Positions 48,343 through 55,921 of a DNA stretch of 64,000 nucleotides are shown here, one piece after another. The position numbers and the translations under genes were made by a program. The stretch's first letter is position 1. Each line of letters starts with the position of its first letter. This DNA comes from Enterobacteria phage GiZh, in the sequence record NC_054903.1; one strand, written 5' to 3'. The notes under the pieces were generated by a model. That model saw only the letters and a list, made by a program, of their open reading frames with translations, ran no database searches and had not been told where the DNA came from.

Positions 48343-49029
48343 TTAAAAATCGTGGGTAGAATCAGCTTCAAGAGCTACTACATAATTCGCATGTTCACCT
48401 TCAAATTTAGCAGCACCTTGTTTACCTTTTGCCCAGAGCAGAAGTTTATAATTTCCTGGTTGCATTTTCATATTTGCCATATTGATAATGAAATTAAATG
48501 TATTTTCACCATCATAATCACCAAGAGTCAAAGAATATTTAACACGAGTCAAAGCAGAATCTTCTACTTTATTAAAACCGTTAATTACGATTTTACCTTC
48601 TTTTACCGTGATAGCAATTGTATCAATTTGCAGACCACGAGATACACGCAACAGTTGTTGAAGGTCTTCAGCTTTAATTTCAGTAACAACAGATGCTACC
48701 GGGAATGGAATTGGTTTATTAGGAGCAACTACTGTACTCGGATCGGCTGCTGGCCAAAAAATTGTTGAACGAGCATCAGCAATTTTAATATTTCCATCTT
48801 CTGACTGGGAAATTTCTGCATCATCATTAACTAGAGACAGAATACCAAGAAAACCGTTCAAATCGTAAATCGCTACATCAAAATCAATAGTGTCAGAAAT
48901 ATTTGCTTCTGCATAAGTTGTACCATTAACTGCGCGAGTCATAATAAATTGACCTGATTTAAGCATAATGCCAGAGTTAATAGTAGCGAAATTTTTCAAA
49001 ATATTCAGTGTGTCTTTAGATAATTTCAT
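48343..49029 (-). CDS. 45: sliding clamp gp45
   Basis: 228 aa, same as T4 gp45. Confidence 0.9.
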   Translation of the reverse strand: MKLSKDTLNILKNFATINSGIMLKSGQFIMTRAVNGTTYAEANISDTIDFDVAIYDLNGFLGILSLVNDDAEISQSEDGNIKIADARSTIFWPAADPSTVVAPNKPIPFPVASVVTEIKAEDLQQLLRVSRGLQIDTIAITVKEGKIVINGFNKVEDSALTRVKYSLTLGDYDGENTFNFIINMANMKMQPGNYKLLLWAKGKQGAAKFEGEHANYVVALEADSTHDF

Positions 49030-49913
49030 TTCAATTTCCTATTTACATAATAGTTAGACCAGGACCGTACAGCACCCTGATAAGATTCGTCGTTAAACCC
49101 ATTAGCTACTGCAATTTTACGAAATTTATTATAACTTGGTTTTCCGTAAGCATGCCATAAAGATTTTAATTCATCTTCATGTTCAATCCAAGTTCCTCTA
49201 GCTTTAGATTTTCTAAATTTTGATTTGAATTCCGGTAAATTATTTCTAACAGTTGCTTGAATTGAAGCTCTCTGTCTTCTTTCAGCATTATTCCATAATT
49301 CTTTTTGAGATTTAGAAATTTTTGATCTTACACTTTCTGAATTCATTATATCACTAAACTTTTTAGCATAACTACAATCAAGATATTTCAATTTCATCTT
49401 ATTTGAGAGTTTAAGCTTTTTCTCATCGGTCCAGTGATTCTTCATTGAATTAGATATTTTGTATTTTACTTCAGAACTATGTTTGTAACCTTTACGAATA
49501 CCGACATACTCAGGCGTAATTTCAGATTGCGAAAGCTTTACAATTTTTCCAGTTAAAACATTTTTATATGTTCCATATCCTTTAGCACCAATTAAAGTAT
49601 TTTCATCTGCGTATGCTTTATTAAAATATTTTATATTACTCTTTGCTTTAACTTTTAATTGAAAAAATCTCTCCAATTTTCTTGGATCTAATATAGTTTC
49701 AGCTAAAATTTTGACGGTATATTTAGTGGTTTTAATAAGTTCAAAATATTCATCGCTATAACTCGATGACACGCTTCCAGTATAAATCTTTCCAGCTGAA
49801 TCAATTATATTTGTTCCATCGAAAATTGCGTTAATTTTTGAACCTATATAATAACACGGAAAAATATTTTTAGCTTCCCGCTCTGGAAAGCTAATAAGAT
49901 ATACTAAATTCAT
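49026..49913 (-). mobile_element. putative Seg-like GIY-YIG homing endonuclease gene (295 aa)
   Basis: N-terminal VYLIS...YYIGS (GIY-YIG-like) and repeated basic K/S-rich C-terminal motifs; T4 has no large gene here. Confidence 0.45.
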
Positions 49914-50299
49914 TTATTAAACTCGGCCACAATTGTTTCCGCAACAATTTGTGCAGCAACAATCAGACGTTCATCTGCATTACCGCAATAATCATCTTCA
50001 AGGCGTTCACCACATGAAGTCATAATAAATTTAGCACCGGCGTTTAGGGATTCTGTAGTATGTTTGCGCATTAGTTCAATCCATTTATTACTTACTTCAC
50101 GATCGATAGCTTCATAATACGCATGACGAGCAGGTGCAGATTTAATTTTGTTCTGAATAACTTCCATTGCGTTATCAGAAAGAGACAAAACCCATGCGCG
50201 ACGAATTTTATTTTGGTTTTGTGGATTTGATTCAGAACGCACGTGTTTTGGCTGAATATCTTTTACATCAACAGTATAATTCACAGTAATTTTAGTCAT
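49910..50299 (-). CDS. rpbA: RNA polymerase-binding protein RpbA
   Basis: 129 aa, same as T4 RpbA; position upstream of 45. Confidence 0.7.
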
Positions 50300-52495: not shown

Positions 52496-52682
52496 TATCT
52501 AAAATGTTGAAGTTAAAAGATACAGCCCAGTCAGTGCAGACTGTAACCTTTTTAATACAATTATCTTCAACCTCTAGCGGTTCAAACCAATATTCAATAA
52601 TTTCTTTATGTCCAATATCATCTTTTACTTCGCATTCAAAATGCTGACTCATCATAACATTTTTAAATTCATCAAAAGTCAT
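52419..52682 (-). CDS. hypothetical protein (87 aa or shorter)
   Basis: ORF; overlaps previous, true start uncertain. Confidence 0.4.
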   Translation of the reverse strand: MTFDEFKNVMMSQHFECEVKDDIGHKEIIEYWFEPLEVEDNCIKKVTVCTDWAVSFNFNILDNDTPKSLRDMAVSCIKDAYCEVFDI

Positions 52683-53698
52683 TGTGTTGCCTCTACATAT
52701 AGCTGATTTGCATATTGAATAAGTGCTTCGCGATCAGAATCAGTGATGTCTGGAATTGCATTAATGTATTCTTCCATCAATGTCTGAAGAGATTGAACTT
52801 CAACTTCTTCACTGTCATCTGACTCAACAGAGTTATCAATCTTTGACACAACTCGTAATGAATGCACAACTTTTTCTAGTTCAGATTCGAACTTCGTTAG
52901 ATTTTTGTCTACTTCAGTTACTATAACACGTACTGATAGATTTGTAAAATCTTTATAGTCAATTTTTCCTTTAAATGGATAATGAATTCTACGATGCCAT
53001 GTAGTATTGTTTGGAATAAATTCCATTCGTTCTGTTTCTGTATCAAACATCCAGAACCCGCGAGGGTCATTCTCGTCACCTGCAGTTAGTGTCCATGGTG
53101 TCCCAATATATCTGACGTTAGCAGCCTCAGAAATAGTATGGAAGTGACCAGACCACACTTCCTTATAAGTCTTAAGGAAATCAGGTTCAAGACCGTGAGA
53201 TTTCATTCCTTTATAAAAATAAAATCCGTTCAGTTCCCAGTGACCAACACAAAAAGAAGCAGAAGAAGTTTTTATGTGCTCGAGAATTTCACCAGTATTT
53301 TCTTCACACATCCAAGGAATTAAATCAATTAAACATCCGTCAAAATCTACTGTAGTAGGCTTATCATATACTTTAACATTAGGATATTTAGCCAAAAGCT
53401 CAGTAGAGGCATTTGGATGCATTACATTTTTGTAGTGGAGATCGTGATTTCCTACAATAGTATGTAATGTGATTCCAGCATCATCAAGCATTTGAACTAT
53501 TTCACGAGCAAACTCCATAGTTTTATGCGTGATTGCTTTTCGCACATCAAAAATATCACCGTATTGAATCCAGGTAGTAATTCCATTTTTCTTAGAATAT
53601 TCTATCGCTTGTTTAATTCCATCAATTTGAATACCGCGAATCCACTCATCATCAGCTTTAACGCCTAAATGCCAATCACCCAAGTTTAGTATTTTCAT
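52679..53698 (-). CDS. 47: recombination endonuclease subunit gp47 (Mre11/SbcD-like)
   Basis: 339 aa; sequence recognised (MKILNLGDWHLG..). Confidence 0.9.
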   Translation of the reverse strand: MKILNLGDWHLGVKADDEWIRGIQIDGIKQAIEYSKKNGITTWIQYGDIFDVRKAITHKTMEFAREIVQMLDDAGITLHTIVGNHDLHYKNVMHPNASTELLAKYPNVKVYDKPTTVDFDGCLIDLIPWMCEENTGEILEHIKTSSASFCVGHWELNGFYFYKGMKSHGLEPDFLKTYKEVWSGHFHTISEAANVRYIGTPWTLTAGDENDPRGFWMFDTETERMEFIPNNTTWHRRIHYPFKGKIDYKDFTNLSVRVIVTEVDKNLTKFESELEKVVHSLRVVSKIDNSVESDDSEEVEVQSLQTLMEEYINAIPDITDSDREALIQYANQLYVEATQ

Positions 53699-54299
53699 GG
53701 TGTCTTTTCCATCCTAATTTAGCTGCTTTTGAAACCAGTTCTTTAATTTTTCCTTTTGTCCATTCAGGACCAGGAGGTTCATGACATAACATTTGCTTAA
53801 CTCCGTTATTATACCATTTTTTACCTTTATTATGTGATGAAGCTTTAAATTTATTTGACCTTCCTTTTACATAACCTTCTGGAATATAAGGTAAAAATGC
53901 AGATTTTCCTGTTAATGGATCATGTGAATGTATATTTCCTTTACAATTATGAGAACCATATAATGGATGATTTTTTCCTTTAATATCTCTTCCAAATGAA
54001 CCTTTTGGAGCAGCATATGACATATTAAAGAATAATGGATTTTTAACTGCATCATGCAATCGTTGATAATATAACTCGCATTTAATAGCTTCTTCACGCG
54101 TATCAAATTCAGCTAAAATGCATGAATCAAATAAGTGAGGATTATCTGAAAGCTCTTTATTATAAATTTTCTTATACTTTTTAGATAAAACTGAACCATG
54201 ATATCCAGCTAAATGCCTATCTAAAGACGTAGATCCAATATAAAAAGGAGGAAGTTTATCTCCACTATATATTGTTAAATAAGTTATATATTTTTTCAT
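53676..54299 (-). mobile_element. Seg-like GIY-YIG homing endonuclease gene (207 aa)
   Basis: YITYLTIYSG...FYIGSTS...R...E...N pattern; C-terminal KKWYNNG motif; overlaps gene 47 start by 23 nt. Confidence 0.6.
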
Positions 54300-54434
54300 A
54301 TATCAAGAACCGTCATTGAAATGCAAAATAAAATTATTGAAATAAATCCATCTGGCGTGCTAAAGAACCCAATCCAACATGCTCTAGCAAATAGATAAAA
54401 TGCAAGAAAAAGTATCACATATCCAAGAAATATC

Positions 54435-54459
54435 ATTATATCAAACTCCGTATAAAGCT
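54435..54459 (-). promoter_or_regulatory. putative MotA-dependent middle promoter (AGCTTTA-N12-TATAAT)
   Basis: same box, spacing and -10 as the gene 39 upstream element. Confidence 0.4.
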
Positions 54460-54461
54460 AA

Positions 54462-54479
54462 AGGGCCGAAGCCCTTTAT
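54462..54479 (-). terminator. hairpin (AAGGGCUUCGGCCCUU) at the 3' end of a-gt
   Basis: UUCG-loop hairpin overlapping the a-gt stop codon. Confidence 0.4.
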
Positions 54480-55678
54480 TTTGTAATAATGTCAAACTGT
54501 TCTTTAAAGCAGAAGCTTGAATCTTGGTGCTGATACAAAAATTCATATGCTTTTTCTCGCTCACGGTCATAAAGAGCTCGGTCAGATGACAGTTCTTTAA
54601 TACGTTCAAATGTTGATTCCATATCATTTTCATCAAACCAAATGATACCGCTATCATGCGAGGTCAAAGGAGTATTATCAACACGGAATTTTAAATTTTC
54701 GCCAGTAGATTTCCAAAATACCGGAATTGTTCCACATGCACCAAGCTCGAGATGAGTATATTCTAAAGAGCGCTGTAGATATTTTTTATCCAACTTACTC
54801 AACTGATAACCAAAACCGGATTTACTCATACGTTCAAGCATTTCGCTATTTACATAACGGTCAAGAATTTGCGTTGGCAAATTAGGAGCAATTTTAATTT
54901 GGTCTACTTGATGAAGACGATAATACTCGTATGGAATTCCTTTTTCTTTAATAGGAATGAACGCTGGAGAACGTTCCAGACCTTCCATAATAGTACTTAG
55001 TCCTGCAGGTTTAAGATGTTTTTCATGAAAATCAAACATCTGATAAAAACCTTTCCATGTAGTCGTACGACCAATCCAACGGTTGATATTCATGTTAATT
55101 TCAGAAACATCTTTCCAGTAGGTTGATCGAACCTTCGCAATATCCATAGGAGGCTGAAAGTTATATACTGTCGGTGCTTCTTCAATATCATCAAACAGAG
55201 AAACAGTTTCTGGATACCACTCTTTCATCAGAACTTTATTAAAATCACCATTATCAGAATGGCTAAAAATAACATCAGCTCGACGAACAGTTTCTTCTAA
55301 TCCCAAATTTCGACGCAAAGAAAGAGAAGAATGGTCATGCTGATAAACTACAACACGAACAGAAGGTTTAATGTTATCAATAATTTTTTTATAGTTATTA
55401 ATAGTGTCTTCTTCAACCGAAGTAGCAGGAACTGAATTGATAATTAGAATATCACAATCATTTACCAGCTTAAGTGTTTTATCGTATTCTTTTGCCAATA
55501 AAACCGGAATTGAAAATGATTTATAATCATGCGCGCAATTACGAGTAAATGATTTATCTTTAGCATAAACCAAAGTTACTTCATGACCATTTTTAATAAA
55601 CCAATCACGTTGCTCGAGTGAGAATTTTGTTACACCACAACCTTCAAGACCTCGAGCCATAAAAATACATACTTTCAT
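54476..55678 (-). CDS. a-gt: DNA alpha-glucosyltransferase
   Basis: 400 aa; near-identical to T4 alpha-gt as recalled. Confidence 0.9.
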   Translation of the reverse strand: MKVCIFMARGLEGCGVTKFSLEQRDWFIKNGHEVTLVYAKDKSFTRNCAHDYKSFSIPVLLAKEYDKTLKLVNDCDILIINSVPATSVEEDTINNYKKIIDNIKPSVRVVVYQHDHSSLSLRRNLGLEETVRRADVIFSHSDNGDFNKVLMKEWYPETVSLFDDIEEAPTVYNFQPPMDIAKVRSTYWKDVSEINMNINRWIGRTTTWKGFYQMFDFHEKHLKPAGLSTIMEGLERSPAFIPIKEKGIPYEYYRLHQVDQIKIAPNLPTQILDRYVNSEMLERMSKSGFGYQLSKLDKKYLQRSLEYTHLELGACGTIPVFWKSTGENLKFRVDNTPLTSHDSGIIWFDENDMESTFERIKELSSDRALYDREREKAYEFLYQHQDSSFCFKEQFDIITK

Positions 55679-55921
55679 TTAATATCCTCATTGTTTTGGT
55701 TTATTTTACCAAAAATTTATAAAGCAATATAGGAGCCGAAGCTCCTATCCGCATAATACACCGTATAGAGGCTCATTAGAGCTTCTAAATTTTATACGCT
55801 TATATGTTATAGTTCCTTCTGCTTTAGCTTTATCATGAGACTCTTTAAAGCGTCTCATCATTTCCTCTTTAGAGGAACGAATTTTATTATAATCTATTTC
55901 AGAAGTCTGGGTGTTCATCTT

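Follow-up and report, generated by a model that had tools for sequence, protein, structure and literature searches.

RESULTS

The stretch of DNA that we analyzed (64,000 nucleotides of Enterobacteria phage GiZh, NC_054903.1, referred to here as the window) carries an open reading frame on the minus strand immediately upstream of the recombination gene 47 (Table 1). The protein, called Seg below, begins MKKYITYLTIYSGDKLPPFYIGSTS according to the ORF list and the sequence, matches PHROG 10820 with an E value of 2.6e-94, and has 170 homologues; this number, together with dN/dS values of 0.05 to 0.17, places the frame beyond chance. A preliminary description, made from the letters of the window, had reported the ORF, and we confirmed both the frame and its 23-nt overlap with the start of gene 47, which follows exactly from the coordinates. 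The same description had put the gene between gene 47 and a-gt. It does abut gene 47, but gene 47.1 intervenes on the other side, and the ORF is not directly beside a-gt. As stated there, T4 has only the small 47.1 ORF at this locus: in the T4 annotation, no Seg-type gene lies between a-gt and 47.

Table 1. Features at the 47.1/47 locus of the window
Feature	Position	Strand	Basis
ORF of 207 aa plus stop, probably a Seg-like free-standing homing endonuclease	53676..54299	-	ORF list and sequence, PHROG 10820, homologues, dN/dS
23-nt overlap, Seg 3' end and gene 47 start	53676..53698	-	Sequence and T4 alignment
ATGA overlap, Seg start and gene 47.1 stop	54296..54299	-	Sequence, T4 annotation, alignment
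Gene 47.1, 46 aa, predicted membrane protein	54296..54436	-	PHROG 6693 (E = 6.4e-31), T4 annotation
Gene 47, Mre11/SbcD-like recombination nuclease subunit	52679..53698	-	ORF list, annotation
Four synonymous changes in gene 47	53681..53690	-	T4 alignment, insert-free loci, collection junction counts
Basic C-terminal half of Seg, residues 101-207	53679..53999	-	Charge, secondary structure, paralogue comparison
GIY-YIG catalytic domain of Seg (by fold and profile), residues 1 to ~100	54000..54299	-	I5-T6-Y7, Y20-I21-G22, G-Y33-x-G35-S, E75, N92
T4 middle-promoter-like motif, GCTT-N14-TATAAT	54435..54458	-	Regex match; also in T4
GC-rich hairpin with UUCG loop, after a-gt	54459..54478		Identical in T4

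Alignment of T4 with the window showed a clean insertion of exactly 601 bp between 47.1 and 47, with gene 47.1 kept upstream of the insert. At the 5' end, the Seg start codon shares an ATGA with the stop codon of 47.1, and in T4 the equivalent ATGA is the start of gene 47, overlapping 47.1. At the 3' end, the TGA stop codon of Seg falls inside the Gly-Asp codons of gp47 (GGTGATTGG, read as G-D-W). Among the 28 closest homologues, 19 end in an xEN tail, which is expected from ATGAAAAT read in the +1 frame. Gene 47 is the gene abutted by the insert, and the target region likely lies there. The repeat ATGAAAA is probably not a target-site duplication, since the Met-Lys start of both ORFs accounts for it; it could plausibly serve as microhomology for precise deletion.

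Inspection of the sequence near Seg showed neither a convincing sigma-70-type promoter nor a late-promoter box (TATAAATA). The nearest promoter for Seg and 47, and in part for 47.1, is probably the GCTT-N14-TATAAT motif, a pattern annotated as a middle promoter by similarity in phage SA20RB. The hairpin that follows a-gt carries a terminator annotation in some relatives. Because Seg is a promoter-less cassette with an ATGA start and a 23-nt overlap, it is transcribed with its neighbors and probably translated in series; the order of translation would be 47.1, Seg, and 47, possibly with coupling. In this respect Seg resembles segC, segF, and segG, which are promoter-less cassettes in a polycistronic unit (PMC2988022), and Edgell's review counts seven T4 seg and mob genes as promoter-less cassettes (PMC2988022).

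The assignment of the N-terminal half to the GIY-YIG family rests on fold and profile evidence, the Pfam match being subthreshold. In the HMM search that the preliminary description had proposed, PF01541 reached 21.4 bits, short of its gathering score of 22.6 (E = 3.1e-4; model positions 2 to 74 of 78). Thirteen of 42 relatives matched PF01541 at an E value of ≤0.01, and the relative P0063 has a precomputed match to it. NCBIfam and PADLOC searches of the window protein gave no match. In sequence searches against the PDB, the single query returned spurious ribosomal-protein matches only and the 42-sequence profile returned none, so that a fold comparison was needed to find a solved relative. 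The AlphaFold model of the N-terminal domain (pLDDT 95 to 98) has the GIY-YIG alpha/beta fold, a three-stranded sheet flanked by helices, and the best three Foldseek matches in the PDB were all to the catalytic domain of I-TevI (probability, 0.97 to 1.00), with other GIY-YIG nucleases next. A viral structure library yielded 82 matches at an E value of ≤1e-3; among the 50 listed, those with names were GIY-YIG, Seg-like, NUMOD, or intron endonucleases, and none was an HNH enzyme. The earlier identification had been made contingent on a detectable GIY-YIG domain, and one was found by the Foldseek matches to I-TevI, by the viral-library matches, and by family-profile matches to SegE, SegG, and SegC.

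Alignment with I-TevI and T4 SegA to SegG placed the GIY equivalent at I5-T6-Y7, with Y7 paired with I-TevI Y6, and the YIG motif at Y20-I21-G22, paired with Y17-V18-G19. Both motif tyrosines are at least 90% conserved among the 42 relatives, and E75 and N92 are invariant; N92 pairs with I-TevI N90, and E75 pairs with the conserved Glu of SegA to SegE, at most one column from I-TevI E75. The Seg-type GYxGS motif is also present. The canonical Arg position after YIG (I-TevI R27) is occupied by R28 in the window protein, by K in most relatives, and by N in some, while R68 and K40 are nearly invariant in the same set; the T4 Seg proteins likewise have no Arg aligned at the canonical position (MAFFT alignment). 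Thus, of the hallmarks listed in the preliminary description, the domain, YIG, E75, and N92 stand, whereas the GIY motif is I5-T6-Y7 rather than T9-I10-Y11 and the supposedly conserved R (R28) is variable.

The C-terminal half has a net charge of +14 and eight His residues, in agreement with the basic tail noted earlier, and the secondary structure of the predicted model contains two β-hairpins and a terminal helix. A Pfam search of this half gave no match, including to NUMOD3. In paralogues, the equivalent position is occupied by NUMOD3 DNA-binding modules, and by analogy the C-terminal half of Seg presumably binds DNA and sets target specificity.

Scored against T4 proteins, the family profile gave 39.0 bits for SegE, 21.9 for SegG, 20.0 for SegC, 15.0 for SegB, and 13.0 each for SegD and SegA; PHROG 314, labeled "homing endonuclease," was matched with an E value of 1.7e-17. 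Like SegE and SegG, and SegA to SegG more broadly, the window gene is free-standing amid conserved phage genes and occurs patchily in close relatives, and its product combines an N-terminal GIY-YIG domain, with the G-Y-x-G-S motif and the conserved Glu and Asn, with a separate C-terminal part presumed to bind DNA. However, it is just 27 to 29% identical to SegG and SegE (BLASTP) and is therefore orthologous to none of the T4 seg genes. It also differs from SegE and SegG in four residues, KLPP, inserted between GIY and YIG, in a C-terminal region that does not match NUMOD3, and in a 3' end that overlaps a downstream essential gene, and it occupies a locus at which T4 has no endonuclease gene (T4 annotation; Table 1 of PMC2988022). 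The catalytic domain of I-TevI, the endonuclease of the T4 td intron (1LN0/1MK0), is 17 to 21% identical to that of Seg, with no match at the sequence level, even with the family profile. Unlike I-TevI, Seg is not intron encoded, and neither the zinc finger nor the helix-turn-helix of I-TevI was detected in it. Closer N-terminal domains (45 to 70% identity) were found in GIY-YIG endonucleases of T4-like and Rhizobium phages, e.g., Yersinia phage TG1 and Enterobacteria phage IME281, whose C-terminal halves, in contrast, are made of NUMOD3 repeats (PF07460). Those checked by position lie at other genome locations (near 4.4 to 5.0 kb in TG1, for example), which fits the idea that a swap of the C-terminal domain may redirect the enzyme to a new target.

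The gene was present in approximately 67 of roughly 540 Tequatrovirus-like records (~12%), and the remainder had precise empty sites; by junction counts in the phage collection, there were 67 occupied junctions versus ~462 precise empty ones. The preliminary description had suggested comparing this junction across T4-like genomes and had allowed for a gene conserved in all relatives; instead, both occupied and precise empty sites were found. The carriers span at least 10 separate RefSeq records. For several of them, the closest match to the flanking haplotype is an insert-free phage, and JK08 and L006 are identical across the adjacent 400 nt of a-gt. At least five other T4-like lineages have orthologues at this locus, and the 23-nt overlap is often shared as well. 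A homologue lies directly upstream of gp47-gp46 in L026, L033, L050, L068, L069, L071 (an Aeromonas phage), L072, and SEA1, and the overlap is identical in L068, L069, L071, and SEA1.

Seg is under purifying selection, with the dN/dS range given above within Tequatrovirus and a value of 0.09 against the Gelderlandvirus copy. Its nucleotide diversity (π = 0.010) is lower than that of gene 47 (0.021) and a-gt (0.030); this and the several flanking backgrounds of the insert are indirect population evidence for preferential inheritance. Identities of Seg and gp47 co-vary across genera (r = 0.86; 21 pairs), and the two Tequatrovirus haplogroups of Seg are separated by a dS of ~0.17, a value similar to that of the flanks; much of the history of Seg is thus vertical. 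The window and SEA1 are 80% identical in Seg and 73% in gp47, an edge that falls within this co-variation, and a recent cross-genus transfer is therefore unsupported. As orthologues occupy the same position in several genera, Seg represents an old resident lineage and no recent arrival. The patchiness inside each group may reflect a gene that is repeatedly acquired by homing and then lost again through precise deletion.

Four synonymous changes in gene 47, at nucleotides 9, 10, 15, and 18 (window positions 53690, 53689, 53684, and 53681), give the codons ATA CTA AAC TTG versus the T4-type ATT TTA AAT TTA, which was found in all eight insert-free Tequatrovirus loci. They were the sole insert-associated sites in the flanks (1,379 nt upstream and 1,268 nt downstream). 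The changes could reflect self-immunity or simple linkage, and tight linkage alone can explain them, since all lie within 18 nt of the insert and inside the Seg ORF. Pairwise clustering of the four substitutions was only marginal (P ~0.005 to 0.04 versus the closest insert-free loci), and for this reason we relied on the population association. In other genera the clustering test was uninformative, the flanks being too diverged and the KPV15-like locus frameshifted. Nine records matched the window-type gene 47 start only, without the Seg 3' end, and SHFML-26 (by alignment) and PBM-1 (by a full-length empty-junction match) have precise empty sites that retain the variant codons; we interpret such sites as putative footprints of Seg loss. 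Immunity through synonymous recoding is not a general rule, since two Gelderlandvirus-like phages, SEA1 (with insert) and L027 (insert free), are identical over approximately the first 88 nt of gene 47; we keep it as a minority reading. In the ERS-1 record, the insert is present, but the gene 47 codons are of the T4 type and Seg is frameshifted; this record is marked UNVERIFIED, and its flanking 47.1 region likewise contains an indel as well as mismatches, so that it carries no weight either way on immunity.

DISCUSSION

We consider it probable that the ORF is an intact free-standing GIY-YIG homing endonuclease gene of the T4 Seg type. T4 SegA to SegG have been shown to mediate intronless homing and marker exclusion and are the model for both. 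Our observations cover the ORF with its fold and family relationship, the geometry of the insertion, patchiness among relatives, purifying selection, and the conserved locus, and the Seg-like identity that the preliminary description had proposed is supported by the fold, the SegE profile match, and the patchiness; nuclease activity, the position of the target, homing, and translational coupling we infer from these. Such an enzyme would join a catalytic N-terminal domain of ~100 residues to a basic half that chooses the target, and its cassette would have taken over the ATGA used by T4 gene 47 and ended 23 nt within that gene. In a co-infection with a Seg-less relative, it would cut the DNA of that relative within or close to the 5' end of gene 47; the Seg-bearing genome would then serve as the template for double-strand break repair, which would copy the Seg gene in. 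A literature search found no cleavage or homing experiment on this Seg gene. The subthreshold Pfam score, the empty NCBIfam search, the failure of the family profile to match a PDB sequence, the variable R28, the similar depth of the Seg haplogroups and their flanks, the co-variation of Seg with gp47, and the SEA1/L027 identity are points against a reading of active homing.

A more specific arrangement, with a geometry like that of intron endonucleases, is a tentative possibility: this Seg lineage would bind the GDWH site of gene 47 and cut its own insertion point, with protection by recoded codons. The C-terminal domain would then sit on the conserved gene 47 sequence for nuclease motif I (GDWH), and the cut would fall a few tens of base pairs from the bound site, at the 47.1/47 junction. 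Characterized free-standing endonucleases cut hundreds of base pairs from their own genes. The GGTGATTGGCATTTAGG segment at the junction is a candidate docking stretch for the C-terminal hairpins and helix. Under such an arrangement, carriers would be doubly protected, by the insertion and by the four synonymous positions; alleles that are empty but retain the variant codons would be resistant "footprints"; and the overlap would couple translation of gene 47 to Seg, which would make imprecise loss hard. If this is true, the target of the endonuclease would be the gene encoding the very Mre11-like nuclease by which the breaks needed for homing are processed.

It is unlikely that Seg is instead a domesticated, essentially vertical nuclease or DNA-binding gene that has lost homing and is kept for a benefit, such as competitor exclusion, or because translation of gene 47 depends on it. 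The correlation with gp47, haplogroups as old as the flanking diversity, strong purifying selection, and the retention of locus and overlap from Escherichia phages to an Aeromonas phage are all consistent with domestication, and the overlap fixes the Seg stop and the last codons before the gene 47 ATG, so that imprecise loss would be expected to damage gene 47 expression. However, only ~12% of the Tequatrovirus-like records carry the gene, and because the sites elsewhere are perfectly clean and empty, it must be dispensable, with gene 47 working without it. The flanks of carriers and noncarriers are also intermixed, and the catalytic residues are kept, which would be unnecessary if the role were purely regulatory or structural.

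A decaying relic, with an open frame and an enzyme that is no longer active, is a reading that we consider highly improbable. The residue at the canonical Arg position varies in the family, the T4 genome has defective mobA and I-TevIII, and the ERS-1, ESh16, and KNP5 copies of Seg contain frameshifts or gaps; however, these damaged copies are all in UNVERIFIED records, with homopolymer indels or N runs, and look like sequencing artifacts. Nearly all 67 copies have an intact frame, the dN/dS values are low, and the conservation of Y7, Y20, E75, and N92 extends over 42 diverse relatives. An HNH-family endonuclease, named in the annotation strings of the NC_0549xx RefSeq records and PHROG 10820 only, is refuted by the fold comparison, with neither the HNH motif nor the beta-beta-alpha-metal fold present, no HNH match in the Pfam search or among the fold matches listed, and negligible profile scores for T4 Mob proteins, including MobB to MobE (≤7 bits, versus 13 to 39 for SegA to SegE and SegG).

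The "HNH endonuclease" label in RefSeq and PHROG 10820 should thus be corrected to GIY-YIG (Seg type). As a Seg-type endonuclease gene, the insert is probably a selfish mobile gene of a well-known kind, placed precisely in front of gene 47 in a T4-like phage; it is an ordinary example of its kind and does not overturn current understanding, but it adds a candidate Seg relative at a position that lacks an endonuclease gene in T4 and marks a recombination-prone boundary beside the essential nuclease genes 46 and 47. A natural series exists, from occupied sites through empty ones to empty ones with the variant codons, and the carriers include the BASEL phages Bas39, TadeuszReichstein, and PaulHMueller, which are isolated, have sequenced genomes, and are open to direct experiment.

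Identification of a putative Seg gene

The preliminary description had proposed a Seg-like homing endonuclease gene between gene 47 and a-gt, and the fold, family and insertion evidence shows this reading to be right in substance: the ORF, here called Seg, is an uncharacterised and putative member of the well-known Seg class, whose genes are free-standing and encode GIY-YIG homing endonucleases. Its coordinates were correct, as were the 23-nt overlap of its 3' end with the gene 47 start (from the ORF coordinates) and the presence of nothing but 47.1 at this place in T4 (NC_000866 and alignment). The insertion does lie near gene 47, but between 47.1 and 47, not adjoining a-gt; the order on the minus strand is a-gt, 47.1, Seg, 47, 46.2, 46.1, 46. 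The Seg ATG is that of the ATGA in which 47.1 terminates, and its TGA stop, 23 nt within gene 47, falls inside GGTGAT, the Gly-Asp codons of the gp47 G-D-W-H segment. In T4, 47.1 and 47 are joined directly by an ATGA overlap with nothing between. The window is a Tequatrovirus with ~98% identity to its closest database relatives and no identical one, and its alignment with T4 showed a single clean 601-bp insertion with an ATGAAAA heptamer at both edges and otherwise nearly identical flanks.

Features of the gene 47 region and its surroundings in the window
Feature	Position	Strand	Remark
Gene 45	48343-49029		neighbour of second ORF
Second GIY-YIG-like free-standing ORF, 295 aa	49026-49913	minus	between rpbA and gene 45
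rpbA	49910-50299		neighbour of second ORF
Gene 47	52679-53698	minus	contains Seg stop
Seg ORF, 207 aa	53676-54299	minus	
K109	53973-53975		Seg residue, interdomain linker
I106	53982-53984		Seg residue, interdomain linker
Gene 47.1, 46 aa	54296-54436	minus	ends in ATGA shared with Seg start
T4 middle-promoter-like motif, GCTT-N14-TATAAT	54435-54458		identical in T4; annotated middle promoter in phage SA20RB
a-gt	54476-55678	minus	neighbour

Sequence evidence for the family was thin by itself. Seg scored 21.4 bits (E = 3.1e-4) against the Pfam GIY-YIG domain PF01541, just below the gathering score of 22.6 bits; an NCBIfam search gave no match, and no PDB sequence was matched by Seg or by its 42-member family profile. 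PHROGs returned phrog_10820 (E = 2.6e-94), labelled "HNH endonuclease," and more weakly phrog_314, "homing endonuclease"; the HNH label is repeated in several RefSeq records. Thus, we tested the fold with an AlphaFold model made from a 42-sequence alignment, in which the N-terminal domain (residues 1 to 95) had pLDDT values of 95 to 98. The top Foldseek matches in the PDB were the I-TevI catalytic domain (1LN0 and 1MK0, probability 1.0), followed by the GIY-YIG domains of Slx1 and UvrC. Predicted viral structures gave 82 matches at E <= 1e-3, and the named entries among the 50 listed were GIY-YIG, Seg-like, NUMOD or intron endonucleases. As no HNH fold occurred among the PDB matches or the viral-structure matches listed, we rejected an HNH identity and consider that label wrong. 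The family profile scored 39 bits against T4 SegE, 22 against SegG, 20 against SegC and 13 to 15 against SegB, SegD and SegA, versus 7 bits or less against the T4 Mob (HNH) proteins; pairwise identity of Seg with SegG and SegE was just 27 to 29%. The proposed GIY-YIG domain is therefore borne out by the I-TevI-like fold and the family profile, with a sub-threshold Pfam score.

In a MAFFT alignment of Seg with I-TevI and SegA-G, Y7 (I-T-Y) is the "GIY" tyrosine and Y20-I21-G22 the "YIG." The Seg-specific G-Y-x-G-S motif (Y33, G35) is common to Seg and the T4 Seg proteins, whose conserved Glu is aligned with E75, while N92 is aligned with I-TevI N90. E75, N92, Y33 and G35 were invariant in the 42 relatives and Y7 and Y20-G22 almost so; R28, at the expected catalytic Arg position, is K or N in many of them. 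The C-terminal half (residues 101 to 207) is basic, as proposed, with a net charge of +14 and 8 His; it had no Pfam match and is predicted to form two beta-hairpins and a terminal helix. Many paralogues instead carry the same N-terminal domain fused to NUMOD3 DNA-binding repeats, the usual modular design of such enzymes. Where the window Seg has I106 and K109, both in the low-confidence linker joining the modelled domains, seven other copies from Tequatrovirus have N and Q, respectively.

Neither a convincing sigma-70-type promoter nor a late-promoter box was found in or just upstream of Seg. Because only the middle-promoter-like motif was present, Seg looks like a promoter-less cassette on an existing transcript, as described for T4 segC, segF and segG and several mob genes (PMC2988022). 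The ATGA overlap with 47.1 and the Seg stop 20 nt beyond the gene 47 ATG suggest serial translational coupling through 47.1, Seg and 47.

Distribution and history of Seg

A 2.2-kb query spanning the locus matched 595 phage records, with full coverage in only 67; Seg alone was found at at least 95% identity in 67 records. The 70-nt Seg/47 junction gave 67 full-length matches versus 462 for the 68-nt T4-type empty junction, and thus Seg is present in ~12% of Tequatrovirus-like records, the remainder having a precise empty site. The gene is not in all relatives compared at the 47/a-gt junction. Carriers include at least 10 separate RefSeq records, and all eight IMG/VR Tequatrovirus loci were empty. 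Dozens of GenBank genomes already contain Seg, annotated as hypothetical, as a "putative homing endonuclease" or, in error, as an "HNH endonuclease"; no paper on it was found in the literature searched.

With 50 to 80% identity, homologues are found directly upstream of gp47-gp46 in L026 (a QL01-like phage), locus L033, Klebsiella phage KPV15 (L050), Salmonella phage SEA1 (a Gelderlandvirus), Aeromonas phage L9-6 and three metagenomic contigs, and four of these non-window loci have the identical 23-nt overlap. Among the 28 closest homologues in the database, 19 end in an "xEN..." tail, the expected product of gene 47 ATGAAAAT read in the +1 frame. Seg and gp47 identities co-varied (r = 0.86; seven carriers, 21 pairs), and thus Seg has largely co-diverged with gene 47, with hops between genera not frequent. 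The Seg lineage is old and linked to the start of gene 47. In SEA1 (L074), a hairpin and an AT-rich spacer, and not 47.1, precede the Seg orthologue; the insert-free L027 has 47.1 there. Gene 47 is 100% identical between these two over the first ~88 nt and ~92% over the first 900 nt, which looks like a recent short exchange or unusually strong conservation beside the insertion point.

The Seg dN/dS was 0.05 to 0.17 within Tequatrovirus and 0.09 versus SEA1, values indicating that the protein is under selection. We rejected relic status on these values and because damaged copies are few (ERS-1, ESh16, KNP5), all of them from records flagged UNVERIFIED and showing indels in homopolymers or stretches of N. 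Among eight carriers, Seg had a nucleotide diversity of 0.010, versus 0.021 for gene 47, where it rises again inside the first 200 nt, and 0.030 for a-gt; the contrast was milder at four-fold sites (0.035 versus 0.051 and 0.109). Carrier and non-carrier flanking haplotypes were mixed together: in gene 47, PhiZZ23 and F26 are each closest to a locus lacking the insert, and JK08 and locus L006 do not differ in the 400 nt of a-gt next to it. Two Seg haplogroups differ by a dS of ~0.17, similar to the flanks. These patterns fit an old element that different backgrounds have repeatedly acquired, by placement or by recombination, but alone do not prove endonuclease-driven homing.

Silent changes at the gene 47 start

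Gene 47 starts with ATG AAA ATA CTA AAC TTG GGT in carriers and ATG AAA ATT TTA AAT TTA GGT in T4 and in all the Tequatrovirus loci examined that lack the insert; the T4 form also occurs in three loci with just ~72% gp47 identity. Of the 67 full-length matches to the occupied junction, 66 were 97 to 100% identical to the carrier form and so cannot have all four T4-type bases. The ERS-1 record (94.3% match, UNVERIFIED) aligned as an insert with T4-type codons. Nine records matched the window-type gene 47 start and not the Seg 3' end; of these, SHFML-26 (alignment) and PBM-1 (full-length empty-junction match) proved to have a precise empty site with carrier-type codons. In a scan of 10 carriers versus 7 non-carriers, which covered 1,379 nt on the upstream side and 1,268 nt on the downstream side, the four positions were the sole strongly insert-associated sites.

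One reading is that the four changes, located in the Seg ORF no more than 18 nt from the boundary, are simply part of the element and co-inherited with it; this needs no extra assumption. That they shield carriers from their own putative enzyme is a minority possibility, since co-inheritance is simpler, in Gelderlandvirus carrier SEA1 and non-carrier L027 do not differ at the gene 47 start, and the cleavage sites of free-standing endonucleases are usually hundreds to thousands of base pairs away from the endonuclease gene (Edgell review, PMC2988022). For the empty sites with carrier-type codons, the simplest explanation is that Seg was precisely lost and left a footprint; the flanking ATGAAAA repeats may have provided microhomology for this. 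The T4-type DNA of the first nine gene 47 codons, ATGAAAATTTTAAATTTAGGTGATTGG (window position 53672-53698), is identical in L014, L016 and L017, synonymous positions included, at ~72% gp47 identity, suggesting a DNA- or RNA-level constraint beyond the protein code, e.g., translation initiation or a protein-binding site.

The conserved overlap, the stop inside gp47 catalytic-motif codons, the naturally occurring set of alleles (occupied, empty and footprint) and the co-divergence with gp47 are of interest to homing-endonuclease specialists and leave the general picture of these enzymes unchanged.

Other endonuclease genes around genes 46 and 47

Genes 46 and 47 lie in a hot spot of variable endonuclease genes. 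In T4, segA, segF, mobA, mobB, mobC and I-TevII all map within the first 46 kb, around 46/47/a-gt, and mobB (an HNH homing endonuclease gene) separates a-gt from a-gt.2, where the window has a 66-nt spacer (55679-55744). None of T4 segA-F, mobA-E, I-TevI and I-TevII had a homologue in the 64-kb window (tblastn E < 1e-5). PhiZZ23 (L064) and F26 (L065) carry an 855-nt "homing endonuclease" gene between 46 and 46.1 (window ~52235), SHFML-26 (L056) an endonuclease gene beginning at the same place (only partly inside the retrieved stretch) and teqhad (L063) another beside gene 46 on the opposite strand (the sites in these loci correspond to window ~52235 and ~50550); the window has none of these.

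SegG was the sole T4 endonuclease with a tblastn match in the window, at the second ORF, which shows 40% identity to it over the N-terminal 100 aa (E = 1.8e-14). This ORF has ATGA-type 4-nt overlaps at both ends where T4 has just a 55-nt spacer, scored 22.9 bits with the Seg family profile and gave no significant match in Pfam or PADLOC. Only 23 phage records held it at at least 95% identity, mostly annotated hypothetical; Seg is both commoner and better annotated. Its C-terminal ~45 aa (window ~49026-49160), ELKSLWHAYGKPSYNKFRKIAVANGFNDESY, resemble an extra C-terminal extension in some Seg relatives (P0020, P0026 and P0028 compared), e.g., FDELFALWMECGKISPNKFRKIAVDKGFPDISY in P0020, which suggests a shuffled helix-turn-helix-like module common to these endonucleases.
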